IMG/VR virus record: IMGVR_UViG_3300038701_001110
Span: 1 to 63,042 of that record
Length of the DNA stretch: 63,042 nucleotides
DNA from: a virus
Direction: 5' to 3' (one strand)
Shown: one piece after another, positions 1,661 through 28,500 of the stretch
Layout of the letters: every line of letters starts with the position of its first letter
Numbering within the stretch: the stretch's first letter is position 1
Position numbers and translations under genes: made by a program
The notes under the pieces: generated by a model
What the model was told of the DNA's origin: nothing
Databases searched by the model: none
Seen by the model: the letters and a program-made list of their open reading frames with translations, nothing else

Positions 1661-1679
1661 ATTATACGGATCGTATAAC
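1661..1679. promoter_or_regulatory. Early-arm palindrome copy (ATTATACG-GAT-CGTATAAC)
   Basis: Lies 35 nt upstream of the start of the minus-strand gene 1225-1626. The first base is A instead of G. Confidence 0.6.
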
Positions 1680-2201: not shown

Positions 2202-2230
2202 TTGACATATACTTGTTTTTGTGGTATTGT
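2202..2230 (+). promoter_or_regulatory. Candidate sigma70-type promoter
   Basis: TTGACA (2202-2207), 17-nt spacer, TATTGT (2225-2230), at the right edge of the AT-rich island and pointing into the early genes. Confidence 0.5.
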
Positions 2231-2533: not shown

Positions 2534-2575
2534 CCCCACACGGGGCTGCCTCATGGTGCTGTCCGCACCCGTGCC

Positions 2576-2594
2576 GTTATACGGCGCGTATAAC
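2576..2594 (+). promoter_or_regulatory. Early-arm palindrome copy
   Basis: GTTATACG-GCG-CGTATAAC; ends 14 nt before ATG 2609. Preceded by the hairpin AGCCCC-ACAC-GGGGCT (2532-2547). Confidence 0.7.
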
Positions 2595-2608
2595 CAAGGA
2601 GATGAATC

Positions 2609-2731
2609 ATGAAGCCCAAACACAAGCGCGCCCTGCGCCTGCGCTACTACGCCGAGGCGACGTTCGGCGTCGTAAGCCTGTGTATCGCAGGCTACGCTGG
2701 CTGGCTGCTGGCTGCAGCCGTTCTCAACTGA
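2609..2731 (+). CDS. 40-aa membrane micro-protein (MKPKHKRALRLRYYAEATFGVVSLCIAGYAGWLLAAAVLN)
   Basis: GGAG 7 nt before the ATG, a basic N-terminus and one TM-like helix. Below the 60-aa threshold of the track. Confidence 0.55.
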   Translation: MKPKHKRALRLRYYAEATFGVVSLCIAGYAGWLLAAAVLN

Positions 2732-2744
2732 GGAGGAATAAATC

Positions 2745-2927
2745 ATGACTGACCTCAACTACGAAGCCTGCTTCGACCAGCTGCCGCGCCACCAGCGCGA
2801 GGTGCTGGACTATATCGTCCAGCCTGATGAACCCCTCACCCATGCCTCGATCATGGTAGGGGGCATGAACCCCAACAACGTCAAATCCAAGTACCGGGAG
2901 GAGCAGTATGCGACCTACGGCGCATGA
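2745..2927 (+). CDS. Hypothetical protein, 60 aa
   Basis: GAGGAGG RBS 8 nt before the ATG; packed tightly with its neighbours. Confidence 0.7.
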   Translation: MTDLNYEACFDQLPRHQREVLDYIVQPDEPLTHASIMVGGMNPNNVKSKYREEQYATYGA

Positions 2928-3129
2928 GCCCGAATGCACCGAGTGCGGAGAGAGCTACGACCAGCGCCGCGCGGCGCTGGGATACTCAACGTGCCTCGAC
3001 TGCGGGGACGCCGCCGCTGCAAGCGAACGGGCCTCGTGGTGTATCGCACCAGCCGGCCATAAGCAGGGTGAGACACTGGTGCGAGACCCAGCGCACCTAA
3101 AACAAATCAACAAGTATGCGGCGGGCTGA
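2908..3129 (+). CDS. Zinc-ribbon protein, 73 aa (CTEC...CLDC)
   Basis: GGAGGAG RBS, a 20-nt overlap with the previous gene, and two CxxC pairs. Confidence 0.7.
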   Translation: MRPTAHEPECTECGESYDQRRAALGYSTCLDCGDAAAASERASWCIAPAGHKQGETLVRDPAHLKQINKYAAG

Positions 3130-3136
3130 GCCCGCC

Positions 3137-3155
3137 GTTATACGGAGTGTATAAC
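3137..3155 (+). promoter_or_regulatory. Early-arm palindrome copy (7-bp arms, 5-nt centre)
   Basis: GTTATAC-GGAGT-GTATAAC; ends 1 nt before ATG 3157. Preceded by the hairpin GCGGGC-TGA-GCCCGC (3121-3135), which contains the upstream stop codon. Confidence 0.7.
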
Positions 3156-3156
3156 G

Positions 3157-3378
3157 ATGAAAAACTACGGCAACGGCTACGGCTACGGCAACGGCAACGG
3201 CTACGGCTACGGCGACGGCTACGGCGACGGCAACGGCACCGGCACCGGCTATGGCAACGGCTATGGCAACGGCTACGGCGACGGCAACGGCTACGGCTAC
3301 GGCTACGGCGACGGCTACGGCGACGGCACCGGCACCGGCAAAGGCGACGGCGACGGCTGCGGCCACGGCTACGAATAG
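3157..3378 (+). CDS. Gly/Tyr/Asn/Asp repeat protein 1, 73 aa (MKNYGNGYGYGNGNGYGYGDGYGDG...GHGYE)
   Basis: The ATG and the TAG bracket the repeat block exactly. No SD; the palindrome abuts the ATG. All six frames are open here, and the frame choice is argued in the findings. Confidence 0.55.
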   Translation: MKNYGNGYGYGNGNGYGYGDGYGDGNGTGTGYGNGYGNGYGDGNGYGYGYGDGYGDGTGTGKGDGDGCGHGYE

Positions 3379-3388
3379 GGACGGTATC

Positions 3389-3646
3389 ATGACACACAAC
3401 GGCAGAGGCGATGGCTACGGCGACGGCAGCGGCGACGGCTACGGTTACGGTTACGGTTACGGCAACGGTTACGGCAACGGTGACGGCAACGGTTACGGAA
3501 ACGGCTACGGCTACGGCAACGGCAGCGGCGAAGGCGATGGCTACGGCTATGGTAACGGCTACGGCATCGGCACCGGCACCGGCATCGGCAACGGCGACGG
3601 CGACGGCTACGGCTATGGTAACGGCTACGGCAACGGCGACGGATAA
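3389..3646 (+). CDS. Gly/Tyr/Asn/Asp repeat protein 2, 85 aa (MTHNGRGDGYGDGSGDGYGYGYGYGNG...GNGDG)
   Basis: The GY frame shifts by +1 relative to ORF 1 and is again bounded by an ATG and a TAA at the block edges. Gly codons vary GGC/GGT/GGA, which is synonymous only in this frame. Confidence 0.55.
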   Translation: MTHNGRGDGYGDGSGDGYGYGYGYGNGYGNGDGNGYGNGYGYGNGSGEGDGYGYGNGYGIGTGTGIGNGDGDGYGYGNGYGNGDG

Positions 3647-3679
3647 AAAACAACAAACACATCGAAAAGGAGAAACACG

Positions 3680-3985
3680 ATGTATGATAAGGGAACGAAA
3701 GTGATCATTCGAAGCTCAGAGTCTGGTGTCCATCATGGAACACTGACTGACTACAGCCTCGACGGTGGATGGGTTCGGCTTGAGAACTCCCGGCGCCTAT
3801 GGAGCTGGAAGACGGCCAACGACGGGATCAGCCTGAGCGAGATCGCGATTGCAGGGATCGACCAGAGCGAGAGCAAGATCACCGACACCCTGCCGGACAT
3901 CATTATCATAGGGGTGTGTGAGATCATCCCCACATTCGGGATGGCAGACGTCACCATCGAAGGTGCCCCCGTGGCGAAAGCATGA
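3680..3985 (+). CDS. Hypothetical protein, 101 aa
   Basis: AAGGAGA RBS 6 nt before the ATG. Confidence 0.8.
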   Translation: MYDKGTKVIIRSSESGVHHGTLTDYSLDGGWVRLENSRRLWSWKTANDGISLSEIAIAGIDQSESKITDTLPDIIIIGVCEIIPTFGMADVTIEGAPVAKA

Positions 3986-3990
3986 TCGCC

Positions 3991-4009
3991 GTTATACGAC
4001 GCGTATAAC
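3991..4009 (+). promoter_or_regulatory. Early-arm palindrome copy
   Basis: GTTATACG-ACG-CGTATAAC; ends 22 nt before ATG 4032, followed by CAAAGGAG. Confidence 0.7.
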
Positions 4010-4031
4010 AATGACCAAAGGAGACTAAATC

Positions 4032-4808
4032 ATGGCATTCACTGTAAATATGGACTGGCGCGACTGCGTCGATAGCTACGCAAGTGCTCTTCAACTGCAC
4101 ACCAAAGCCGAGGCTAAGCCTTGGCGTAACGGGGGTGAGGATTACCCCCTACCTAACAAGCGCGTGCGTCACATGGGCGTGCGCAAGCTGCCTGACGGCA
4201 GCATCGCCTTCCGCTTCCACCGCACCGACGTGGTGACGTGGCATCCCGACGAGACCTACACGCTGGTTCCGTGGCAGTCGCAGAGCACCTGCGAGTTCGC
4301 CAACACGTTTCTGCCCAGCGGGCACTACCTGCACAGGGTCGGAACCTGCCTCACCATGGGTGGGTGGCACAATGGCACCACTTACCCCGTCGACTACGAC
4401 AGCACGGTGCATATCAACCCCGAAACCAACGCCCCGACACACCCCCTCAAGAGTGTGTTCCGCAAGCGCAAGGTCGACCGCAAGAAGGCCAAGGTGCTGC
4501 TCGCTGAGACTAACTACACCGAGTATCGCGAGTGGTGGAAGCTGATGCTGTCTATGAGCGGCACCGGGGAGCGCAACTGGGATGTGAACGCCCACAACCT
4601 GAAGGAATACCTCGCCGACCGGGACAAGTGGCATGACCTGATGTGCTCGTACTACGGCAATCCGGACACTATCCGCGAGTTTATCTACGATACCACATTC
4701 GGTGATCGCTCCCCCTACCACCACGAGCACGCCGACACCCTGCCTGCAAACACACGCGTCATCTCCGACACCGTAGGGTCGGGGTGGCATATCACTGGAC
4801 GCAACTGA
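4032..4808 (+). CDS. Hypothetical protein, 258 aa
   Basis: AAGGAGA RBS and a long ORF with coding-like composition. No motif recognised. Confidence 0.85.
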   Translation: MAFTVNMDWRDCVDSYASALQLHTKAEAKPWRNGGEDYPLPNKRVRHMGVRKLPDGSIAFRFHRTDVVTWHPDETYTLVPWQSQSTCEFANTFLPSGHYLHRVGTCLTMGGWHNGTTYPVDYDSTVHINPETNAPTHPLKSVFRKRKVDRKKAKVLLAETNYTEYREWWKLMLSMSGTGERNWDVNAHNLKEYLADRDKWHDLMCSYYGNPDTIREFIYDTTFGDRSPYHHEHADTLPANTRVISDTVGSGWHITGRN

Positions 4809-4820
4809 AGGAGACAAGAC

Positions 4821-5120
4821 ATGATGACTAACGACCCGAACGAGACCGCCGACCCAGAGATCACGAAGCAAGTGAGCGTGGCTCTCGATGCGTTCAACAA
4901 CGCCCTGCCTGACACCCTACGCACATACCATGTGATCGGCATCCTTGTGTCGATCATCCGCAACTTCACATCGGACAGCCGAGACGCCGCCGATCTCATG
5001 AAGGACCTGCTGCTTGCGCTCGCGGAATCATACACCATGGACGAGCAGAGCTTCGGACCCGACACCGACGAGTGCATGTGTTCCGCCTGCGTGGCGGCAC
5101 GCAAAGCTCAGGCTCACTAG
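4821..5120 (+). CDS. Hypothetical acidic protein, 99 aa
   Basis: AAGGAGA RBS. Confidence 0.8.
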   Translation: MMTNDPNETADPEITKQVSVALDAFNNALPDTLRTYHVIGILVSIIRNFTSDSRDAADLMKDLLLALAESYTMDEQSFGPDTDECMCSACVAARKAQAH

Positions 5121-5176
5121 GGTTGCATCCCAAGGTAAATCATGGTAACATAGTCTAGGTAAAACAGGAGACGACC

Positions 5177-5674
5177 ATGGTTCAACCTACCGGTGAGGGA
5201 AACACAGCGTATCAACATGGCCATTCAAGAAGGGGGAATAAGAGCACACTATACATACGTTGGCAAAATATGAAGGCTCGATGCCATCAGCCTTCCAACA
5301 AAGACTACCCCAGATATGGTGCGGTTGGTATCACAGTGTGTGACCGTTGGCGTTACGGTGAGAACGGGGTTAGCGGCTTCTCTCTATTCTTGGAGGACAT
5401 GGGGGAGCCGCCTTTCCCGTCAGCAAGCATCGACAGGATCGACGGAAGCAAAGGATACTGCGCCGAAAACTGCCGGTGGGCGGACGTTCAAACCCAGACA
5501 GTGAACAGGCGCACCACCAAGTGGCTTACCATAGATGGAGAGACCAAACCCTTGACCGAATGGGCGAGGCAAGTTGGTGTCGGACCAAAGACAATCCACT
5601 ACAGGCTCAAGAAAGGTTTGAGCCACAAAGATGCAGTTTTCCTACCCACGGATCGTGGGAGGAGACTCAGATAG
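5177..5674 (+). CDS. Homing-endonuclease-like DNA-binding protein, 165 aa; N-terminal domain paralogous to 16170-16835
   Basis: Pattern YxxWxxMKxRCxxPxxxxYxxYGxxGITVCDRW...F..DMG...SIDRID....Y...NCRWA..Q..NRR, shared with the polymerase-inserted gene. C-terminal HTH-like segment. Visibly lower GC than its neighbours. Confidence 0.6.
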   Translation: MVQPTGEGNTAYQHGHSRRGNKSTLYIRWQNMKARCHQPSNKDYPRYGAVGITVCDRWRYGENGVSGFSLFLEDMGEPPFPSASIDRIDGSKGYCAENCRWADVQTQTVNRRTTKWLTIDGETKPLTEWARQVGVGPKTIHYRLKKGLSHKDAVFLPTDRGRRLR

Positions 5675-5680
5675 GGCGTC

Positions 5681-5699
5681 GTTATACGCCCCGTATAAC
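5681..5699 (+). promoter_or_regulatory. Early-arm palindrome copy
   Basis: GTTATACG-CCC-CGTATAAC; ends 18 nt before ATG 5718. Confidence 0.7.
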
Positions 5700-5717
5700 A
5701 CCAAGGAGAAATGAGAG

Positions 5718-6809
5718 ATGAACCAAGCACATACCATGTATCTCGTGAGCCTCGATCAAGCGACGAACCTGATCAAGGTGGGTGGTCACAAGCGCACCGT
5801 TCTGGTGCAGGGCCATACCGGCACAGGTAAGAGTTCTATCCTGCGCACCCTCGCTCAGGAGATGCCGACCCACACGGCGTGCTACTTCGACTGCACCACG
5901 AAGGACTTGGGCGACATCATGATCCCCAAGATGAAGGACCTCGACGGGCAGGACTACGTGCAGTTCGCCACCAACGAGGAGCTGGGTCTGCACCTGCGGG
6001 ACAAGCCGATCATCCTGATGATCGACGAATACGGCAAGGCCAACCCGATGGTGAAGAACGCCCTGCTGCGCCTCATGCTGGAGCGTCAGGTTGGCAGCTA
6101 CAAGCTGCACCCGGAGAGCATTGTGTTCGCTACCACCAACCTCGGCGCCGAGGGTGTCGGGGACATTCTGCCACCCCATGCACGCAACCGCATAACAGTG
6201 GTGCAGAGTCGCAAGCCGTCCCATACCGACTGGATCGAGTGGGGTATCAACAACGGTATCGACCACAGCCTGCTCGGCTGGGTGCGTGACAACCCGCAGC
6301 TGTTCCAGTCCTTCGAGGATGTGCAGTCGCCTGACGAGAACCCCTACATCTACCACCCACGCTCGCAGCGCGCTGCGTTCGTGACGCCTCGCTCCCTTGA
6401 GGCTGCGTCGGACTGGCTCAAGCTGCGTGACGGGCTCGACGACCAGACCGTGACCGCTGCCCTGATGGGTACTATCGGTGATCGTGCGGCGATGGACCTG
6501 ATGGCGTTTGTGCGACTGGCTGATGACCTGCCGACAATGAAGCAGATCAAGGAGGATCCCGAGAACGCACCGGTGCCGCAGTCGCCGGCCGCCGCCTGTA
6601 TGGTGGTGTTCCGCACACTGTCCAGCATCGAGATTGACTGGGTCGACGCGTGGGTGACCTACGTCAAGCGCATGAGCGACGAGGCTGTCGGCGTGTTCAT
6701 CAACGGCGTACGCACCCCGAAATACAGCAGGGCTGGTGTGGTCATGACCAACAATAGCTTCACCGATCTCGTGCGTGACCGGTCCTACCTGTTCACCGCA
6801 GACCAGTGA
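5718..6809 (+). CDS. AAA+ ATPase, MoxR/CobS-like, 363 aa
   Basis: Walker A GHTGTGKS, Walker B ILMIDEYG, and an arginine-containing segment (PHARNR) after sensor 1. Adjacent to a VWA partner. Confidence 0.8.
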   Translation: MNQAHTMYLVSLDQATNLIKVGGHKRTVLVQGHTGTGKSSILRTLAQEMPTHTACYFDCTTKDLGDIMIPKMKDLDGQDYVQFATNEELGLHLRDKPIILMIDEYGKANPMVKNALLRLMLERQVGSYKLHPESIVFATTNLGAEGVGDILPPHARNRITVVQSRKPSHTDWIEWGINNGIDHSLLGWVRDNPQLFQSFEDVQSPDENPYIYHPRSQRAAFVTPRSLEAASDWLKLRDGLDDQTVTAALMGTIGDRAAMDLMAFVRLADDLPTMKQIKEDPENAPVPQSPAAACMVVFRTLSSIEIDWVDAWVTYVKRMSDEAVGVFINGVRTPKYSRAGVVMTNNSFTDLVRDRSYLFTADQ

Positions 6810-6826
6810 GACAATCAGCGAGGCGC

Positions 6827-6845
6827 GTTATGCGCCTCGCATAAC
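6827..6845 (+). promoter_or_regulatory. Early-arm palindrome copy (G:C covariant stem)
   Basis: GTTATGCG-CCT-CGCATAAC; ends 17 nt before ATG 6863. Overlaps a perfect 9-bp competing hairpin, GCGAGGCGC-GTTAT-GCGCCTCGC (6818-6840). Confidence 0.7.
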
Positions 6846-6862
6846 CATGGGAGAAGTAACCA

Positions 6863-8095
6863 ATGATCAAGACAACCAACATCAGCGCAGAACAGCGGCT
6901 GGAGAAAGCCGTGCTGGCTATCATGCACAGGCCAGAGTATATCGCCCTGTCCGGCGTGATGATGATCGGCAAGCGCACCGTGACAGACTCGCCGAAAGTG
7001 CCGACAGCCTGCACGAACGGGCGTGACGAGGCGTATGGGCGGCAGTTCGTCGGCACGCTGACCGACGCCGAGCTGCGCTTCCTCGTGCTGCACGAGGTCT
7101 ACCACAAGCTCTACAAACACCTGACCACATGGCGCTGGATGTATGACCGGAACGCCAAGGTTGCCAACATGGCCTGCGACTACGTGATCAACATCCAGCT
7201 GTCCGACGCTCACCGTGACGGGTGGGCCAAGATGCCCGACGGTGGACTGCTCGACCCGAAGTATCGGGGATGGGATAGCGCCAAGGTGTTCCACGACCTG
7301 ATGAAGGACGCGCAGCAGCGGCCGCAGGGCGGCAGCGGCGGTCAGGGTGGACAGGGTGACGGTCAGCCTCAGCCGGGTGAACAGGGCGGTGGCTTCGACG
7401 AGCACGACTGGGACGGTGCCAAGGAGATGCCCACCGAGGAGAAGGAAGCGCTGGCCCGGGACATTGACGAGGCCCTGCGTCAAGGCGCGCTGGTGGCTGG
7501 CAAGCTGGGCACGGGTGGTGACCGCACGTTCGAGGACCTGCTCCAGCCCAAGATCGACTGGCGCGAGGTGCTGCGGGAGTTCATCCAGAACACCTGTGCC
7601 GGGTCTGACTACTCAACGTGGCAGAAGCCTAGCCGCCGGTATATCGGCGCCGGGTACTATATGCCGTCCGGCATATCCGAAAGAATAGGCGAGATCGTCG
7701 CTGCACCTGACATGTCCGGCTCCATCGGTGATGTTGAGATCCGCGCCATGCTGGGAGAGATCAAGGGCATCGCTGATATCGTCCACCCCGAGGCTATCCG
7801 GTTGCTCTACTGGGACACCGAGGTGACGCAGGACGAGCGGTATGAGACGCACGAGCTCGACACCATGATGCAGACAACCAAGCCCAAGGGTGGCGGCGGG
7901 ACGGCCCCTGACTGCGTGCCACGCTACATGACCGAGAACAACATCGAGGCTCAGTGCGCTGTCGTGCTGACCGACGGCTACGTCGGCAACTGGGGGAACT
8001 GGTCATGCCCTGTGCTCTGGGTCGTCGTCGACAACCCCCGCGCCAACCCGCCGTTCGGCAAGGTTGTGCACATCGAAGCAAGTGATCTGAGATAA
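6863..8095 (+). CDS. VWA-domain protein with N-terminal HExxH metallopeptidase-like domain, 410 aa
   Basis: LHEVYH motif near residue 75, MIDAS-like DMSGS in the C-terminal half, VLTDGY, and a Gly/Gln-rich linker. Classic partner of MoxR-type ATPases. Confidence 0.75.
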   Translation: MIKTTNISAEQRLEKAVLAIMHRPEYIALSGVMMIGKRTVTDSPKVPTACTNGRDEAYGRQFVGTLTDAELRFLVLHEVYHKLYKHLTTWRWMYDRNAKVANMACDYVINIQLSDAHRDGWAKMPDGGLLDPKYRGWDSAKVFHDLMKDAQQRPQGGSGGQGGQGDGQPQPGEQGGGFDEHDWDGAKEMPTEEKEALARDIDEALRQGALVAGKLGTGGDRTFEDLLQPKIDWREVLREFIQNTCAGSDYSTWQKPSRRYIGAGYYMPSGISERIGEIVAAPDMSGSIGDVEIRAMLGEIKGIADIVHPEAIRLLYWDTEVTQDERYETHELDTMMQTTKPKGGGGTAPDCVPRYMTENNIEAQCAVVLTDGYVGNWGNWSCPVLWVVVDNPRANPPFGKVVHIEASDLR

Positions 8096-8104
8096 ACGAA
8101 GGAG

Positions 8105-8695
8105 ATGGAAATGAGACTTACCAACGGCATTCGCGACGCCATCCTGTATAAAGCCATGACCGGTGTCCCAGCGATAGACTATATCGCCAAGCTGGTCCCT
8201 GTGATCCAAGGTGTGATCTACAAGCATATGCCCGATAAGGTTAAGGCGGTATATGACGATGAGGACTCCAGAAAATATCTCCACAGCACGAGATGTGTCA
8301 TCAAGGATGGGAACAAGTGGTATTGGGTCGAACCGCTTCTCCGCGGATTGGACAATGCCAACAATCTTGAAATCCAAATCAACCCAGACGCGGTCAGTAT
8401 TATGAAAAAGGGCACGCTCCGGTTTGATCTGTCGAAGGCTGTGATAGCCACAGGCTATGTTGAAAAGCACATCGAGCAGGTTGAGCTACGCAAGGATGTC
8501 GAGCGCAGGCTCAGGAACACTCTTCGTTCTGTGACCACAACGAAACGCCTGCGTGAGGTTTTGGAACCAGAGCTGCATCACCTGATCCCGGTCGAGAGTG
8601 CAAGTGGGGCCAACCTTCCGGCACTGGCAGCCCCCGTCGTTTCCGATTTGCGCAAGCTCGGGGCCCAGCTACCCGATGTTCCGAAGGCGAAGTGA
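8105..8695 (+). CDS. Hypothetical protein, 196 aa (alternative start 8111)
   Basis: GGAG abuts ATG 8105, so the in-frame ATG 8111 has better spacing. Lower GC than its neighbours. Confidence 0.75.
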   Translation: MEMRLTNGIRDAILYKAMTGVPAIDYIAKLVPVIQGVIYKHMPDKVKAVYDDEDSRKYLHSTRCVIKDGNKWYWVEPLLRGLDNANNLEIQINPDAVSIMKKGTLRFDLSKAVIATGYVEKHIEQVELRKDVERRLRNTLRSVTTTKRLREVLEPELHHLIPVESASGANLPALAAPVVSDLRKLGAQLPDVPKAK

Positions 8696-8705
8696 GCGTC
8701 TCACT

Positions 8706-8727
8706 GTATAGCCCCACGGGGCTATAC
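8706..8727 (+). other. Strong hairpin after the stop codon (GTATAGCCCC/GGGGCTATAC)
   Basis: 10-nt perfect inverted repeat with no U-tract. Similar in its AGCCCCAC..GGGGCT core to the hairpin at 2532-2547. Confidence 0.6.
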
Positions 8728-8749
8728 TATCGGGTGCTCACCCGGCGCC

Positions 8750-8768
8750 GTTATACGCGGCGTATAAC
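8750..8768 (+). promoter_or_regulatory. Early-arm palindrome copy
   Basis: GTTATACG-CGG-CGTATAAC; ends 14 nt before ATG 8783. Confidence 0.7.
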
Positions 8769-8782
8769 CAAAGGAGACTAAC

Positions 8783-9676
8783 ATGAACTTTGAATCCACC
8801 CCCACCGTGTCCGCGCCTTCCATCTCTTCCTCGGCCATGCTGGTCGATCTCGGCATCTCTGTCTGGACCGGTCGCAAGAAGGACAAGCGCGCGTCGGCCG
8901 AGGTCGCCGACACCAACCATGCCAATCGTGGCGTGGCGTCCGTGAACAAGGCCCTGCTCGGTGACTGTGCTGAGCTGACCGCCATCAGCAAGTTCGCATC
9001 TATGGTGCGCCAGTCGCACTACGCTTCGACCATGCCGTGGTCCGACACCGGCCTGCGCCTGCTGCCCACGCAGCGCTACTTCGCCTATGTTGAGCAGATG
9101 AGCGGCTTCCAGCAGGAGTTCAACCGGCTGGTCGAGGCGTTCCTGTCCAACTACGAGTGGGAGGTGCTGCAGGCTCACGCCAAGCTCGGTGATCTGTTCA
9201 ACGCTGACGAGTATCCCACCGTCGACTCCCTGCGCGACAAGTTCGGGTTCCGTCTCAACTACATCCCCCTGCCCGACAGCGGCGACTGGCGCGTGGACAT
9301 GGAGGCTGAGGCTCAGCAGGCTCTGCGTGAGCAATATGATGGCTTCTACCGCAAGCAGATGGAGACAGCCATGGACGACGTGATCCAGCGTGTCACCGGC
9401 GAGCTGCAGCGCTTCGTCAAGCAGCTGGACGTGGATGAGGATGGTCGCCGCGGCAAGATCTACCAGTCGACCCTCGACAACGTGCGCAACCTGACCAAGC
9501 TTCTGGAGGAGTGCAACTTCACCAACGACCCGACCATCTCGCTCGCACTCGCCAAGCTGCGCCAGACCCTGCGCGGTCTCGACCCGACAGCCCTCAAGAA
9601 GAACGAGGCGTTCCGTGACGAGACCAAGCGTGACCTGCAGGCTGCCATCGCAGCGCTGCCTTCGCTCGACATGTGA
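8783..9676 (+). CDS. Hypothetical protein, 297 aa; possibly DUF3150-like
   Basis: AAGGAGA RBS. The N-terminal pattern LVDLGISVWTGRKKDKRA resembles, from memory, proteins that accompany CobS/CobT-like ATPase-VWA pairs on plasmids. Not verified. Confidence 0.7.
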   Translation: MNFESTPTVSAPSISSSAMLVDLGISVWTGRKKDKRASAEVADTNHANRGVASVNKALLGDCAELTAISKFASMVRQSHYASTMPWSDTGLRLLPTQRYFAYVEQMSGFQQEFNRLVEAFLSNYEWEVLQAHAKLGDLFNADEYPTVDSLRDKFGFRLNYIPLPDSGDWRVDMEAEAQQALREQYDGFYRKQMETAMDDVIQRVTGELQRFVKQLDVDEDGRRGKIYQSTLDNVRNLTKLLEECNFTNDPTISLALAKLRQTLRGLDPTALKKNEAFRDETKRDLQAAIAALPSLDM

Positions 9677-9701
9677 GCATACACAACGGCGGGGCGTGTA
9701 G

Positions 9702-9720
9702 GTTATGCGCCCCGCATAAC
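9702..9720 (+). promoter_or_regulatory. Early-arm palindrome copy (G:C covariant stem)
   Basis: GTTATGCG-CCC-CGCATAAC; ends 16 nt before ATG 9737. A competing 8-bp helix pairs GCGGGGCG (9689-9696) with CGCCCCGC (9708-9715). Confidence 0.7.
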
Positions 9721-9736
9721 CAACGGAGTAAGCAAT

Positions 9737-10342
9737 ATGGCAATATCTGACGAACACAAAGCCAAGCTGATCGAGGAGCATCGTGACATCAACGTGGGCT
9801 GGGGTGAATGGTGGGACGCGGTCTACGACGACTTCAAGTCGATCTGCACCATCCTCGGTATCACGCTGGACAAGAACGAGCCGTCCTTTTCTGGGTTCTG
9901 GAACCAAGGTGACGGTGCGTCGTTCACCGGTGACTTCTCACCGAGATATATATTGGATGCCCCGGCCAAGATGCGTGAGTATGCGCCGAAAGACGTGGAG
10001 CTGCACCGCATAGCGGACGAGCTGTGCGAGCTGAACATCATCTATCTTGCCAAGTTCTGGGCTACCATACGTCGGGGCGCCACCTACTACTGCCATTCCA
10101 ACACGATGATCAGTGAGATCGAGATCTTGGACGAGGATGAAGACTTCTGGCCCAATGAGGTGTTCGACATTGTCGATGCGAGCTTCCAGCAGCTGATGCG
10201 AGACTTGGCCAACTGGCTCTACGAGGCGCTCGAGAATGAATACGACCACCTCACCAGCGACGAGGGGGTGTGGGAAGCCATCGTGGCGAACGAACTGGAT
10301 GAAGAAGAGGAGGATGGGGATGAAGAAGAGGATGAGGATTGA
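9737..10342 (+). CDS. Acidic protein with poly-Asp/Glu tail, 201 aa
   Basis: ACGGAG RBS. Ends ...ELDEEEEDGDEEEDED. Contains the internal motif FSGFWNQGDGASFTGDF. Confidence 0.8.
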   Translation: MAISDEHKAKLIEEHRDINVGWGEWWDAVYDDFKSICTILGITLDKNEPSFSGFWNQGDGASFTGDFSPRYILDAPAKMREYAPKDVELHRIADELCELNIIYLAKFWATIRRGATYYCHSNTMISEIEILDEDEDFWPNEVFDIVDASFQQLMRDLANWLYEALENEYDHLTSDEGVWEAIVANELDEEEEDGDEEEDED

Positions 10343-10769
10343 TCTCGAGCGCGCGAGCCTAGCGACAATGGTAAACAGATCCAAGGCGGCAGGTGTCGAT
10401 GGCGACCTTAACGTGGAGTGGTGGGCGAAAAAGAGCACTTTCGAACGATCCACCTACATACACAGACTGATTCACATGATGCACAACAGCATGCCGCTGG
10501 ACGACGATCCCGTATTACGGGTTCAATTGAACGCGGACGGCACATACCAGACCCTTCGTATGTTCGTCGCGTCTCCCAAAAACATCCGGTATTACGACAC
10601 TCGCGATGAGCTGCCACAGTGGGTGCAAGACCGCATGCTGATGCTCGACATGATGCGCGATGCAAACATCAAAGATCGCAAGATCGAAGGCATTGGCATG
10701 ATGGTGACCGACACTGTGTATTGGCTCAACCCAATGGATGAGGAAGACAACAATGGCTATGACACCTGA
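10320..10769 (+). CDS. Hypothetical protein, 149 aa
   Basis: Start chosen at ATG 10320, behind GAGGAGG (10307-10313). The track ORF begins further upstream inside the previous gene. Confidence 0.7.
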   Translation: MKKRMRIDLERASLATMVNRSKAAGVDGDLNVEWWAKKSTFERSTYIHRLIHMMHNSMPLDDDPVLRVQLNADGTYQTLRMFVASPKNIRYYDTRDELPQWVQDRMLMLDMMRDANIKDRKIEGIGMMVTDTVYWLNPMDEEDNNGYDT

Positions 10770-11076
10770 GAAGAAAGTGAAACAGAAAGTGGTGGCAGTG
10801 CTCAAGAAGCACGGCGCCTATTATTTCTATCCGGTGACGGGGGGATACGGATCAAGCGGGGTGCCTGATATTATCGCTTGCGTCGCTGGTCAGTTTGTTG
10901 GTATAGAGTGTAAAGCGGGTAAAAACCGCCCAACAAAACTACAGGAGGCTAACCTAGACAAAATAGCAGAGTGTGGGGGGATCGCACTCATCATCAATGA
11001 AACTAATGTTCATGTGCTCGACACCATGCTGAGCCAACTAGGAGAAAGCAATGACTATGACAATGACAACATTTGA
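10753..11076 (+). CDS. VRR-NUC-type PD-(D/E)xK nuclease, 107 aa
   Basis: GVPDIIACVAGQFVGIECK...Q motif order typical of VRR-NUC. GAGGAAG RBS before ATG 10753. Confidence 0.7.
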   Translation: MAMTPEKKVKQKVVAVLKKHGAYYFYPVTGGYGSSGVPDIIACVAGQFVGIECKAGKNRPTKLQEANLDKIAECGGIALIINETNVHVLDTMLSQLGESNDYDNDNI

Positions 11077-11593
11077 GCGTCGCGTCCCTGTCGTGGCGGA
11101 CATCGTGATCTACAAGGTTCTGCCGACAGGCGTTGCGTTTGCGGAACGCTACGACACCGGCGAGAATGTGTACATCAACCACAGTGTGGCAGCCATCTCC
11201 GGCGTCCGAGAGGGGGACGTTCGGAAAGCGAAACTGGTAACAAACAACGGCCCGTCGACAACGCCTTGGTTTGCAACATACGTCGCCAAGGCTGTGGAAG
11301 CTGCGGTCGAACCAGAGCTTGAACTGGACCTCCAGACGGAGCCCGAGCCGGAATTGCACACTGAGCCAGAGATGAGCCATGAAGCTTTGGCAATGAAGCT
11401 CATTGACGAGATGACGCTCGTGTCAACGCAAGAGGTGCGCGAGGAGCTCGGCATCAACCCTGTGGAGGCGTCCAACCTGCTCATGCGCCTGCACCGCAAG
11501 GGGCTTCTGCAGCGGGTCGAAGTGTACAAGGCCCACGATCAGTCTCGGGCGTCTCGCCGACTCTGGACCAAGGACATCGAGCTGGTTCTGTGA
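11051..11593 (+). CDS. Hypothetical protein with acidic linker and C-terminal winged-helix-like segment, 180 aa
   Basis: AGGAGA RBS. The EPELELDLQTEPEPELHTEPE linker is followed by a helical region resembling a wHTH. Confidence 0.75.
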   Translation: MTMTMTTFERRVPVVADIVIYKVLPTGVAFAERYDTGENVYINHSVAAISGVREGDVRKAKLVTNNGPSTTPWFATYVAKAVEAAVEPELELDLQTEPEPELHTEPEMSHEALAMKLIDEMTLVSTQEVREELGINPVEASNLLMRLHRKGLLQRVEVYKAHDQSRASRRLWTKDIELVL

Positions 11594-11732
11594 GTTTCGT
11601 GGGTCGGGCGTCTGAACGTGGCGCATTCTGGTAGCACAGCCAACACCCAAACCACTCTTGGCGGTTCCAAGGTTGAGTTGCTCCCGACCCACACCATCGA
11701 AATACCAAGCTGGGAGGCTTGGCGCAAGGGTC

Positions 11733-11751
11733 GTTATACGACCCGCATAAC
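11733..11751 (+). promoter_or_regulatory. Early-arm palindrome copy (one A/C mismatch)
   Basis: GTTATACG-ACC-CGCATAAC; ends 21 nt before ATG 11773. A competing 6-bp helix pairs GGGTCG (11728-11733) with CGACCC (11739-11744). Confidence 0.7.
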
Positions 11752-11772: not shown

Positions 11773-12330
11773 ATGCGTAAAGTTATCGTGAAGATCGAAG
11801 GCATCTCGCCCTACAGCCAGAGCCGCATGCACGACGAGCCGAAGCTCGACAAGGAGTCGGCCAACGACTACGAGAACCGCACATGGCGTGAGCGGTGCAA
11901 CACCGACAAAGACGGCATGGTGGTGATCCCTGCGATGGCGTTCAAGCAGGCCCTGCCCATCGCCTGCAAGAAGATCGGCCGGCAGATCCCGGGGCGCGGC
12001 AAGTCCACATACACTAAGTATTTCGAGGGTGACGTGCTGTGTGTCGCTGACGCCAAGCTCGGTCTCCACAAGGACGACATGCGTAAGGTGACGATCAACG
12101 CCCATGCGAACGGTCAGCGCGGCTCCGGCACGCGTGTGAAGCGCCACTTCCCTGTGGTGGATGAGTGGCAGACAGAGGTTGAGTTCCTGATCTTCGACGA
12201 CACCATCACCCGTGACGTGTTCGAGGAGACGTTCACAGCTGCAGGCATGGGTGTTGGCATTGGTCGCTTCCGTCCCGAGAACGGTGGCGTGAACGGTCGG
12301 TTCCGCCCGGTCGAGTTCATCTGGGAATGA
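11773..12330 (+). CDS. Hypothetical protein, 185 aa
   Basis: AAGGAGA RBS before ATG 11773. The track ORF start at 11719 lies inside the palindrome. Confidence 0.8.
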   Translation: MRKVIVKIEGISPYSQSRMHDEPKLDKESANDYENRTWRERCNTDKDGMVVIPAMAFKQALPIACKKIGRQIPGRGKSTYTKYFEGDVLCVADAKLGLHKDDMRKVTINAHANGQRGSGTRVKRHFPVVDEWQTEVEFLIFDDTITRDVFEETFTAAGMGVGIGRFRPENGGVNGRFRPVEFIWE

Positions 12331-12408
12331 TGTAGGTTTTCGACGCAACGCTGCTCCGCGCAATGCGCCTCAACGCCACCCCGAGCCATGCCACGCTGCG
12401 CACCTCGC

Positions 12409-12811
12409 CTCAACGCAACGAAAGGTTATGTCCAGCGCCACGCTCCGCGGCTCTACTCGGCGCTGCGCCTCGCAGCTCAACGCAACGAAAGGTTATGTCC
12501 ATCGCAGCGCAACGCATCGCTACGCTTCGCCGCTCCCAGCGTAGCTTCGCCTCGCCGCTCAACGCCGCGCAACACAACGCAACGAAATGTTATGTCCAGC
12601 GCATCGCTTCGCGGCGCAGCTCCGCGCTTCGCAGCTCCACTCAACGCAACGCAACGCAACGAAAGGTTATGCCCGCCGCTCCGCCGCGCCTCGCTCCGCT
12701 GCGCGCCTCAGCTCAACTCAACGCAACGAAAGGTTATGTCCGACGCTTCTCGACGCCTCGCGGCGCGACGCAGCTCAACTCACCGCGGCGCCCCGCAACT
12801 CAACGCAACGA
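12409..12811 (+). repeat. Iteron-like array: five copies plus one half copy of CTCAACGCAACGAAAGGTTATGTCC
   Basis: Copies at 12409-12433, 12476-12500, 12573-12597 (2 mismatches), 12650-12674 (2 mismatches), 12717-12741 (perfect), and a half copy at 12799-12811. Spacings are 67, 97, 77, 67 and 82 nt. All are in the same orientation inside a 500-bp gap with no credible gene. Confidence 0.85.
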
Positions 12812-12832
12812 CACCCACAAAGGAGAAACACC

Positions 12833-18893: not shown

Positions 18894-19184
18894 ATGCCGT
18901 ACAAGAACCCCGAACGAGACCGTAACTACAAGCGGGAGTACAAGCTTCAGCAGGCGAGGGGGGAGAACCCCGCCAGAGCTGAGCGCGCCAAGGCGCGACG
19001 GGCGTTCGACAAGAAGCACGGGCGGAAGGCCCGGGAAGGTCTCGACATCAGCCACAACAAGGCTATCGCCCGTGGTGGGAGCAACTCTGACGGCACGCGC
19101 CTTGAGAGTCCATCGAGCAACCGGGCGCGGGGAGGCGCCATGAGCAAACCACACACGAAGACAAAGCGCCGTCGGCGCTCATAG
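18894..19184 (+). CDS. Small basic protein with HNH-like remnant, 96 aa
   Basis: AGGAG RBS. DISHNKAIARGGSNSDGTRLESPSSNR resembles an HNH core. Very basic tail. Confidence 0.6.
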   Translation: MPYKNPERDRNYKREYKLQQARGENPARAERAKARRAFDKKHGRKAREGLDISHNKAIARGGSNSDGTRLESPSSNRARGGAMSKPHTKTKRRRRS

Positions 19185-19202
19185 TTATACGCCTCGTATA
19201 AC
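19184..19202 (+). promoter_or_regulatory. Early-arm palindrome copy
   Basis: GTTATACG-CCT-CGTATAAC; ends 13 nt before ATG 19216. Preceded by the hairpin AGCGCC-GTC-GGCGCT. Confidence 0.7.
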
Positions 19203-25585: not shown

Positions 25586-28500
25586 CGGGACTCCCCACTC
25601 GCCAAGCACCTGTCGAATGTAGCGCTCGTTTGTGGCGCTGAAGAGAACACCGTGGTGCATACGCTGCGTGGTGCGTTCGTGCGAAGACAGGGAGTTGGAG
25701 ATCGTCTCCGGCCCGATAAAGGCGTCACGGTTCCCCCGCTGCAGCTGCTCTCTGTTGAACTGCCTGATGTCTCGCAGGGTCTCCCGGAACCCGGCCCTGT
25801 CACCTTGCCGCCGCGCCGTGTAGAGCTCGCGAAGAAGACGGACGCGCCTTGCGGAGATGGCTTGGTCGATGCGACGGCCGACGTTGTTCTGCTCGAGCTG
25901 CAGCAGGTAGTCGGACGGCATGAAGCCGAACGCTTGGGCAATGGCGCTGTATGGAGTCACGTCGCCGACAATTGGATCCCCGCGCAGCGTGTTGATACCG
26001 TCCGTATAGTAACGGACGCCCCGGAAAATGTTGCCGAATGAAGTGGGCAGTGCGGCCTCAATGGCACGCTCGTAGTCACCCTCTGCGATCAGGCTCGGGA
26101 CGCGGTCGGTAGCCTTAAGAAGCAGACCCAGCACGGGACCACCGAGCGCCTCCACCTGCTGGAACAACCACGGGGCGTCTCGGTTGAAGGATTCCCGATA
26201 GAAAGAGCCGGACAGACCGATGCGGCTGGCAACGTCCACGCCGAACGCGTAGTTCAGGATGCCGTTGTATCCGAGCTCACCGATCCCGGTGCGCACTAGG
26301 GTCTCGAAGTCCTCTTCGTCGTCCGCAGCGAACAGGTTGTACATCGCAGCCATAGTTGCGAACAGCGGCACCCCTTGGGCCCCGCTGAACAGGGCGAAGC
26401 TCCCCATGATACTCGCGAACTGCATACGTGCGATGCGGATGTCAGACATCTTCGCCTCGTAGTCCGGGTCGGACTTGGGAGGAGCTTGGAAGATCTTCGA
26501 GCGCCGCAGCGTCTGAGCCAGCATGTTGAACATGGCCAACGGGTGCCGCTTGTAGAGGTAGATCAGGCGCGTGAAGCCATGTTGGGCGAGCAGCGGAGCC
26601 CCGGTCGACGTCACCGACCCGTTGGTGAGTTCCGAGATATACGTCGCCTCTCTGGCCGCGGATTGCAGCTGCTCCTCGTTGAGTCGGTTCACATCGTTGT
26701 GGCCCGCCTCTTTCGCAATCTTCTGAGCTTCCAGCTGGAACGCGGAAATGGCCGTCACTTGCCGAGCCATGTTTTCCGTCAGGTGCTGGAATATACCAGA
26801 CTTGGCAAACAGGGTTTGCATCGCCCCGATGGCACCCTTGGCGTCGAGCAGTTCGTTCGTGTACGACTGCTGGAACATGTTCTGCTGACGCATCTCCTCC
26901 TGCAGATACCGCATGTAACGGATGTTCGCGTTCTTCGGATCGCCGAAGTCGTAGTTCTCGAGGGAGTAGTCGAACACCTCTCCCCGCTCCTGACCTTCAA
27001 CAAGTTTCCCACTCTCGTCGAACATCGGCACGTTGCGGGTTTTCCCACTGCCGAAGAGGACGCGGTGAGCGTTCCCCATGGAGCGCACCACCTTGCCCAT
27101 CCCGCCGTACTGGGAAGCGAGGTAGGGTGCCGCCACAATCGGCAGGTTGGCCAGAGACAGGATCGCCGACGAGATGTTGAGGCCCAGCGTCATTGCGTAT
27201 GTCATGCCGGTGGCACCGGTGGAGAGCGGACCGTAGCGCCGCTTGGCGGCGTCGATGTATTCGTCGAGCAGGTTCTTATACATACGCACGATGCTGGAAT
27301 CACGCGACGCCTCCTGCCACCCCTTCGACAGGTTCCGGTTCGTATAAGTGTCTGTGTACTCTTGCGATTGTCGCTTGAGCTGTTCCTCTTGAACGGAGTA
27401 CTCCATGGCCGCGAGGCTACGAGCACTGTCGTAACCCTTGGTTTGAAGCATGTGGATGGTGTCTTTTCTGGTCAGCCCTGCCGTTCCCGGGGCGATGTCC
27501 CCGAGGAAACCCCGGACGCCGGTGTACATACCATCTTCGCGAGCTTTCTTGCGAGCGCGGTAGGCTTGAACAAACGAGCGCTCCGGGGACGCATCAAAGA
27601 TGAGGTCTGTCAGTTTCTGCTCAAGTTCCGGGGTCATTTGACCAGAAGACTTGACCGTTACAAGAACGTCTGCGGCGAACTGCAGGGGGACCTTTTGTGC
27701 CCCCCTCGAGGACCGAGAATTGTAGCTGTCGAACTGCGATATTTGCACACCGTCTTCGTCACGGATACGCTCGAGTTCAGTTATACGAGCCTGACGATCA
27801 GACTCCGACGCGAAGGATTCCTTGTAGCGTTCCACTTCCCCGAGAAAGGGGTCTTTCGCTGTGTAGGCGATCCAGTACGACCCGTTACGTTGCAAGGGTT
27901 GATAGCCGTCAGTGATCTGGCCGGCGAGGATTTTCTCGTGGATCCTGTCAAATACCGAACGGCGGACAGTGGCGTCCTGTTCCGACAACAGCGCGTCGAT
28001 ACGCGCCTTGAGTGCCTTGCTGGTGGCAATGTGCATATCTTCAAACATGCCGAGTGCGCGAGCGTAGGCGGCTTTACCGTCGGCCCCGAGGCTTTCATAC
28101 ATGGGCTTCAGTCGACGGTACATGTCTACCGTGAACTGATCTGGTGCTGGTTCCCGGCGAGCCTTTGAGGCGGTGTTCCCACGGCGACGTTCATGGAGCT
28201 CCATGGCTACTGTGCGGTCAGACTCGGTGTCGAACGCTTTCCGCACGCGACGCTTTATGGTCCCGTCGGCGTTTAGCTCGTCGTAGTAGAATCGCCACTT
28301 GGAGTAGTAGGATTCCGGCTTGCGCAGGTCGATCTGAAACAGCGTTCCGAGTAGACGTACGTCATTGAACGTGTTCAGCTTATCAGGGGCACCTTTCAAG
28401 AACGCCGAGATCTGGTTCACCGTCCGGCGGACCAAGCCAAGAAGTTCCTTCTCTCTGTTCTGTCTCCCTTTGATCACGCTGTCGTAGGCATCCACCATCT

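Follow-up and report, generated by a model that had tools for sequence, protein, structure and literature searches.

Protective intercistronic hairpins are an established mechanism, examples being the repetitive extragenic palindromic (REP) hairpin between malE and malF and the decay terminator of the Rhodobacter puf operon (PMC5927463). Among phages, the SAS/ESAS elements of Cluster K mycobacteriophages are inverted repeats with a variable spacer that lie directly 5' of the translation starts of a subset of genes, and their function is unknown (PMC3203893), while the PeSL cassettes of T4-type phages consist of sigma-70 promoters and effective terminators (PMC2839356). We have analysed the 63,042-bp DNA of an uncultured phage (IMG/VR record IMGVR_UViG_3300038701_001110, positions 1 to 63,042, the whole of which is referred to below as the window), in which a 19-bp palindrome with a variable three-base centre recurs in front of early genes. 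At six copies the bases immediately 5' of the palindrome pair with its centre to form a further hairpin, termed hairpin A, which is real and has been selected.

The palindrome, GTTATRCG-NNN-YGYATAAC, is present in 11 copies against 0.11 expected, all of them in the early arm and starting at 1661, 2316, 2576, 3137, 3991, 5681, 6827, 8750, 9702, 11733 and 19184 (copies are named here by these positions). A start codon follows after 1-25 nt at nine of the 11 copies, and at many of them a Shine-Dalgarno (SD) sequence lies 0-8 nt past the palindrome. The palindrome's own fold (hairpin B) is AU-rich, with an 8-bp stem and a 3-nt loop, and is worth about -6 to -9 kcal/mol. In hairpin A the 5' flank pairs instead with the inner CG-NNN-CG core, leaving the AU-rich 5' arm, (G)UUAU(A), as the loop, so that the layout is X'-S-X-S', with X':X forming hairpin A and S:S' forming hairpin B. 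Because the two hairpins share bases they cannot coexist, as had been proposed in an earlier note on this DNA. That note had also described six alternative helices of this kind; all six were found in place, most of them longer than claimed.

The six hairpins, all on the plus strand, have energies of -10 to -22 kcal/mol, and their flanks match the centres gcg, ccc, cct, cgg, ccc and acc, respectively. Ensemble probabilities of hairpin A, p(A), and of the palindrome fold, p(B), were calculated from 94-nt contexts. At copy 2576 (2576-2594, centre gcg, with an ATG at 2609, 14 nt downstream), hairpin A is CGUGCCGU-uau-ACGGCGCG at 2570-2588, with 8 bp including one G.U pair and an energy of -12.7 kcal/mol against -7.1 kcal/mol for the palindrome fold (p(A)=0.79, p(B)=9e-4). 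Copy 5681 (5681-5699, centre ccc) precedes a MoxR-type ATPase gene (5718-6809), and its 6-bp hairpin, GGGCGU-cguuau-ACGCCC at 5674-5691, takes in the final base of the upstream TAG stop codon; this copy alone is near balance (p(A)=0.58, p(B)=0.27). Copy 6827 (6827-6845, centre cct) has the symmetric variant arms GTTATGCG..CGCATAAC and precedes a VWA/metallopeptidase-like gene (6863-8095); its hairpin, GCGAGGCGC-guuau-GCGCCUCGC at 6818-6840, has 9 perfect bp, or 10 with a closing G.U pair (-20.1 against -9.1 kcal/mol; p(A)=0.996, p(B)=6e-7). At copy 8750 (8750-8768, centre cgg), in front of a DUF3150 gene (8783-9676), the hairpin GCGCCGU-uauac-GCGGCGU at 8745-8763 has 7 bp, two of them terminal G.U pairs (p(A)=0.86, p(B)=7e-3). 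The hairpin of copy 9702 (GTTATGCG-ccc-CGCATAAC, 9702-9720, preceding a gene at 9737-10342) is GCGGGGCGUGUA-ggu-UAUGCGCCCCGC at 9689-9715; it has 12 bp, among them two internal G.U pairs that can form on the sense strand only (-21.9 against -9.0 kcal/mol; p(A)=0.75, p(B)=1e-3). Finally, copy 11733 (11733-11751, centre acc, with an A6.C14 mismatch in the palindrome stem, preceding a gene at 11773-12330) has the 7-bp hairpin GGGUCGU-uau-ACGACCC at 11728-11744 (p(A)=0.80, p(B)=5e-5). Copies 2576, 6827, 8750, 9702 and 11733 thus form a masked class, with p(A) of 0.75-0.996 and p(B) of 6e-7 to 7e-3.

The feature is not universal. Copies 2316, 3991 and 19184 lack the helix, as the earlier note had stated, and so do copies 1661 and 3137. 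In the exposed class, made up of copies 1661, 2316, 3991 and 19184, p(B) is 0.79 to ~1. Copy 1661 (1661-1679, minus strand; p(B) ~1) lies ~20 nt 5' of the ribosome-binding site (RBS) of a leftward gene (1225-1626) and so probably serves the minus strand. The other copies without hairpin A are on the plus strand: copy 2316 (2316-2334; p(B)=0.86) is in the 5' leader of the early transcript, copy 3991 (3991-4009; p(B)=0.86) has the upstream stop codon 5 nt away, and copy 19184 (19184-19202; p(B)=0.79) precedes a helicase gene and has a separate GC hairpin at ~19165-19179. At copy 3137 (3137-3155) a separate 8-bp GC hairpin (3119-3137) abuts the palindrome. One nucleotide past this copy comes an ATG that lacks an SD sequence and opens a Gly/Tyr-repeat open reading frame (ORF) at 3157-3378, which may escape the usual translation, or the junction may work differently.

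When such pairings are considered, it is important to allow for the chance pairing of GC-rich flanks with a GC-rich centre, since the centres are compositionally alike (mostly CCC or GGG) and a permutation of helix lengths among the window copies, with G.U pairs allowed, gave only p=0.057. This permutation is underpowered because the centres are similar, and it was replaced by energy-based tests in which hairpins were scored by explicit helix enumeration. When flanks were swapped among the 11 copies, the effect on hairpin free energy was clear (p=0.0006), the mean energy being -8.1 kcal/mol as observed, -3.0 kcal/mol after swapping and -2.1 kcal/mol in a mirror-image control using the 3' flank on the other strand. 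If the flanks are replaced by 14-mers drawn at random from the same arm, 0.20 copies should reach <= -10 kcal/mol; six were seen, a number reached in none of 3000 draws (p<3e-4). The flank-swap test was also significant within each of two relatives, G001 (p=0.003) and G002 (p=0.0002). Together with the control and covariation results described below, these tests effectively refute chance, to which we attach next to no probability.

Relatives with many copies each of the same palindrome were found by exact-pattern scans. They include the phages UViG_3300034374_002231, 3300007960_000027, 3300043119_000307 and 3300025687_001288, and the palindrome is also present on several metagenome contigs, among them Ga0209953_1000030. 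In a pooled set of 65 non-redundant sites from the window and these relatives, 27 of the 44 RBS-proximal copies have a strong hairpin A (<= -8 kcal/mol), whereas only 2 of the 21 copies in leaders or away from an RBS do (Fisher p=1e-4); the mirror-image controls gave 2 of 44. Pairing occurs in at least four registers, with the loops GUUA, UUAUA/UAU, GUUAU and gGU. Covariation was scored on an ungapped fixed-register alignment (A1) and compared with 500 shuffles, giving 0.195 versus 0.118 shuffled in the UUAUA-loop register and 0.185 versus 0.126 shuffled in the GUUAU-loop register, values that none of the shuffles reached. CG, GC, UA and GU pairs all occur in the centre columns, and flank position -1 is paired with palindrome position 6 as C:G six times and as U:A five times. 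At one site G001 and G002 differ by a flank A to G change plus a centre U to C change, which compensate each other (AGG/CCU to GGG/CCC). Hairpin A is present before the VWA gene in four of six lineages, as ggg/cccc, ccc/ggggcgua, ggg/cgcccugc and ccu/gcgaggcgc, and at orthologous sites before VWA, DUF3150 and ATPase genes both the loop/flank pairs and the registers vary by lineage; the masked status of a gene likewise differs between lineages and is not kept gene by gene. There is a mild sense-strand preference, the sense fold being better at 21 sites versus 7 (p=0.04); internal G.U pairs occur in the sense-strand version only, and the helix is lost or shortened on the other strand at six sites. 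The earlier note had proposed that the flank tracks the variable centre and had named beforehand a lack of covariation in relatives as grounds for abandoning this; covariation is present, and the tracking is established by the energy swap, the shuffles and the compensatory changes at orthologous sites.

Two sequence variants were seen among the relatives. Many copies in G001-G003 and in lineage L156 have in common an extended unit, AACCAnCGCCCC-GTTATACG-GGG-CG. Most copies of lineage L174 (Ga0209953_1000030; sites 216, 3340, 5150 and 8070) carry the asymmetric variant GTTATGCG..CGTATAAC, in which G6 closes hairpin A with a C:G pair but can form no more than G.U in the palindrome stem.

The earlier note took the two folds for an attenuator- or riboswitch-like toggle. 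Folding with both structures considered bears out their mutual exclusion, but hairpin A dominates and copy 5681 alone approaches balance. Indeed, hairpin A is 3-13 kcal/mol more stable than hairpin B and is transcribed first, so that there is no equilibrium or kinetic route to hairpin B at five of the six copies, where p(B) is at most 7e-3. The SD sequence is paired in neither fold, a terminator scan found no U-tract or T-run after either fold at these sites (the tails read GUAUAAC-CAA), and Rfam gave no match at any copy, whether at the gathering threshold or at E<=1. The element is only ~30 nt long with a loop of 3-6 nt, so that nothing of aptamer size is present, and the 94-nt folds contained no upstream third partner for the flank and no competing fourth segment. 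The distance from the upstream stop codon to the start of hairpin A is usually 4-9 nt, and copies with a stop codon 0-6 nt from the palindrome have no hairpin A. A structure 4-9 nt after a stop codon lies at or just beyond the leading edge of the terminating ribosome, which argues against ribosome-driven unmasking at most copies. Stimulation of stop-codon readthrough or frameshifting by the hairpin was also considered and rejected, as there was no plausible in-frame extension through the palindrome at ~25 sites. The toggle is therefore not supported, and the copies look like two fixed classes, masked and exposed, and not like switches. Of the selection on two alternative folds suggested in the note, selection on the helix stands, given its 5'-side position, its RBS-proximal association, its four registers and the compensatory changes; a balanced toggle does not.

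Hairpin A most likely forms in mRNA. From its existence, covariation, 5'-side bias, RBS-proximal association and thermodynamic dominance, all of them directly observed, we infer a function as follows. Our preferred explanation, put forward tentatively, is that hairpin A is a constitutive intercistronic mRNA hairpin built on the unconstrained GC core of the palindrome. At the majority of copies close to a gene, 6-12 nt of non-coding 5' flank have evolved to pair with the CG-NNN-CG core, in which only the three centre bases are unconstrained, and the pairing often also takes in part of the 5' arm; at these short junctions, only the flank and the centre are free to evolve. The mRNA at masked copies would then permanently carry, in order, the stop codon, a few A/C-rich nucleotides, hairpin A, single-stranded UAUAAC with an A/C spacer, and the SD sequence. 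So placed, hairpin A could serve the upstream cistron by blocking 3'-5' decay or by providing a pause site or a weak stop, and it may keep the stretch before the next RBS unpaired. Structurally, it is what a protective stem-loop should be, a stable sense-strand hairpin between cistrons and 3' of the stop codon. In state A the single-stranded tail, G13-U14|A15-U16, appears from its sequence to resemble the RNase E motif RN|WUU with its conserved +2 U.

Several findings weigh against this explanation. The hairpins occur at palindrome-bearing junctions only and not at other short early junctions, which hints at a functional link with the palindrome and not at a general boundary role. At copies 2576 and 8750 another, separate hairpin lies upstream in addition to hairpin A, so that saving space fails to explain the overlap there. 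Moreover, hairpin A is missing from low-GC relatives and from the same-palindrome (GTTATACG) lineages L115, L123 and L175, which makes it a dispensable add-on of a GC-rich subclade, outside the core signal.

How the palindrome itself is read bears on the alternatives. Its arms are nearly invariant in the subclade and 98% paired, masked copies included. Since the arms are equally conserved at masked copies, where the RNA stem is hardly able to form, some form of the palindrome other than the RNA hairpin appears to be what is read, most likely the DNA duplex with a phage protein bound to it. Against this corollary, the G.U palindrome variants GTTATGCG..CGTATAAC, found at 4-5 sites of one lineage, also suit an RNA stem. 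A quick screen of partial loci revealed no small early protein specifically conserved in the same-palindrome lineages, and a winged helix-turn-helix protein (11051-11593) is present in the window and is not shared. Reading TATAAC as a sigma-70 -10 element was rejected, since the SD sequence begins within 0-4 nt of the palindrome's end at many copies and a start 7 nt downstream would remove it.

The exclusion of hairpin B by hairpin A may also be the point of the arrangement. It is possible, though clearly less probable than a constitutive hairpin, that the RNA palindrome hairpin is a signal read by a phage factor (a translational repressor, processing enzyme or antiterminator) and that hairpin A is an anti-signal choosing the responsive genes or coupling exposure to the ribosome or a helicase. 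Such regulated masking fits the mutual exclusion of the folds, the restriction of hairpin A to palindrome-bearing junctions and the split into masked and exposed copies; it is also consistent with copy 5681, near balance and with its hairpin overlapping the upstream stop codon, with the G6.U14 variants, which retain the RNA palindrome stem while strengthening hairpin A, and with the symmetric G6:C14 change at 6827 and 9702. However, the stability and earlier synthesis of hairpin A leave no route to hairpin B at all but one of the six copies, the gap to the stop codon usually puts hairpin A at or beyond the edge of the terminating ribosome, neither fold touches the SD sequence or ends in a U-tract, masking is not conserved gene by gene across lineages, and the arms are invariant even where the RNA stem could essentially never form. 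A wider version of the idea, about as doubtful, is that one palindromic word would be a global early-gene signal to which the GC-rich clade added an RNA layer masking the copies of chosen genes; masked and exposed genes would then differ in their response to whatever factor reads the palindrome, and the 3-nt centre would be a per-gene address setting masking strength.

Explanations at the level of DNA are less probable again. We consider it unlikely that hairpin A is a mutational by-product without function, produced by hairpin-templated repair or template switching in quasi-palindromic DNA or by the spread of a repeat unit through recombination: the extended unit of G001-G003 and L156 does suggest copying, perfect arms do change jointly between close relatives and the hairpin is dispensable in some lineages, but no two of the six window hairpins are alike in sequence and they occupy several registers, so that they are not copies of one unit, the 5'-side and RBS-proximal bias and the absence from leader copies are unexpected of a strand-neutral DNA process, and the internal G.U pairs point to RNA. 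A little less likely still is an alternative hairpin or cruciform in single-stranded or supercoiled DNA, used in replication or recombination or by a hairpin-promoter enzyme. DNA hairpins are used in this way in the N4 virion-polymerase promoters and at single-strand initiation sites, and the 8-bp stem and 3-nt loop of the palindrome, the finding that the nearest cultured homologues of the ATPase-VWA module are in N4-like phages, the near-equal stability of most helices in their bottom-strand version, and the leaderless AUG that would result at copy 3137 from a start 2 nt beyond the palindrome are all in keeping with such use. Yet the helix is lost or shortened on the bottom strand at six sites, and both the RBS-proximal association and the stop-codon spacing point to mRNA. 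An N4-type hairpin promoter in particular was rejected because the phage RNA polymerase it requires was not found among the large or early ORFs (PHROGs, Pfam, PDB and tblastn searches), and the 1922-aa ORF encodes a polyvalent virion protein of PLxRFG/DarB-like type.

The window is a complete genome with direct terminal repeats. Its genes run rightward to ~25 kb, covering early and replication functions, and the structural genes run leftward. A DNA search of the region against phages gave no match, and protein searches led only to very distant cultured relatives. The best sigma-70-type promoter, TTGACA-17-TATTGT with TG (2202-2230, plus strand), is a single strong promoter preceding all plus-strand palindrome copies. 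A terminator scan found no canonical terminators between these copies, which are therefore expected within a long early mRNA. An isolated palindrome half-site, CGTATAAC, lies at 2166-2173, 29 nt 5' of the -35 element of this promoter, and only one other half-site, at 27780, occurs outside full palindromes. A direct-repeat array at 12331-12832 has a ~25-nt unit, CTCAACGCAACGAAAGGTTATGTCC, that shares GGTTATG with the palindrome 5' arm; as the unit is not palindromic, a link between the array and the palindrome was not demonstrable. The 73-aa protein encoded at 2908-3129, with a CxxC-N17-CxxC arrangement that by eye is like a TraR/DksA-type zinc finger (Pfam gave no match), is among the few small early proteins that are widely conserved, being found at 32 loci with other palindromic words at <=61% identity.

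The palindrome belongs to a larger family. Through the ATPase, ~60 related loci were found in which the palindrome differs from lineage to lineage and stands before RBSs and in leader arrays, the words including TGTTAGTG-nnn-CACTAACA, TGTTAGTCC-ac-GGACTAACA, TGTTATCCA-n-TGGATAACA, ATTTAGGGA-ac-TCCCTAAAT, TTCGGGCA-nn-TGCCCGAA, GTAGTGA-n-TCACTAC and GTTATCTA-at-TAGATAAC. Lineages L050-L109 (e.g. L054:3003-4420 and L095:3267-3540) use words beginning GTTAGTG.., GTTAGTCC.., GTTATCCA.., ATTTAGGGA.., TTCGGGCA.., GTAGTGA.. and GTTATCTA... The ATPases do not group by palindrome type, that of the window being 65% identical to that of the same-word relative G001 and up to 69% identical to those of other-word lineages. 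In the leader arrays of relatives (L054:3800-3960, L056:4219-4300, L095:3267-3560 and L081:2142-2260) a conserved box, GAT(A/G)CCAGTTCY.., stands at a short fixed distance after the palindromes, and the palindrome-plus-box units often come directly after a canonical terminator (hairpin plus T7) and could be small transcription units or small RNAs. In some lineages the palindrome lies inside coding regions, namely in a low-complexity linker of the VWA gene (L094:3179 and L096:8317) and in the ATPase gene (L060:6244), the last of these copies also carrying a 6-bp flank-centre helix, GGCAUA/UAUGCC.

These data show that, across a whole clade, the 'variable loop' of a palindrome widespread before phage early genes is constrained, being held by pairing with the upstream flank, and they provide a concrete anatomy for intercistronic control in uncultured estuarine phages. 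They also constrain the palindrome itself, since masked copies can hardly act as RNA hairpins, leaving a DNA-level reading or deliberate masking. Should masking be regulatory, it would offer a simple and evolvable means of tuning individual genes within one global regulon. A literature search by motif sequence returned only unrelated papers, and we found no report of a repeat of this kind masked by a flank that co-evolves with its spacer; the co-evolving masking hairpin thus appears to be new.

Comparison with known systems sets this arrangement apart from each of them in a different respect. Like the trp-type attenuators and riboswitch platforms, it has two overlapping and mutually exclusive helices 5' of a gene, one arm of which co-varies; unlike them, it has no U-tract terminator, SD sequestration, leader peptide, fourth segment or aptamer, and the energy gap strongly favours one fold. 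The palindrome resembles SAS/ESAS in being an inverted repeat with a variable spacer placed before starts in one orientation, but it differs from them in sequence, host clade and phage family (the 13-bp SAS, GGGATAGGAGCCC, had no matches in our search with up to two mismatches allowed), and no complementarity between flank and spacer is reported for ESAS. The stoperators of Cluster A mycobacteriophages, bound in L5 by gp71, are asymmetric 13-mers of temperate phages. As with these, many copies of a short conserved site are found in the short intergenic gaps of one arm, a likeness that fits the reading of the palindrome as DNA; unlike stoperators, the palindrome is symmetric and is overlapped by an RNA hairpin. 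With PeSL cassettes it has in common a repeated unit of conserved signal plus stem-loop punctuating early ORFan-rich regions, but here the palindrome abuts the SD sequence, leaving no room for the spacing from a -10 element to a transcription start, and the hairpin lacks a U-tract. The malE-malF and puf hairpins offer the closest parallel to hairpin A, as they too are stable GC-rich sense-strand hairpins between cistrons, just past the stop codon, without a U-tract and several to an operon. Hairpin A departs from them in that its 3' arm sits inside a conserved 19-bp palindrome with whose own hairpin it competes, and in that it is confined to palindrome-bearing junctions; by analogy, it plausibly acts, as they do, as a protective or boundary hairpin.

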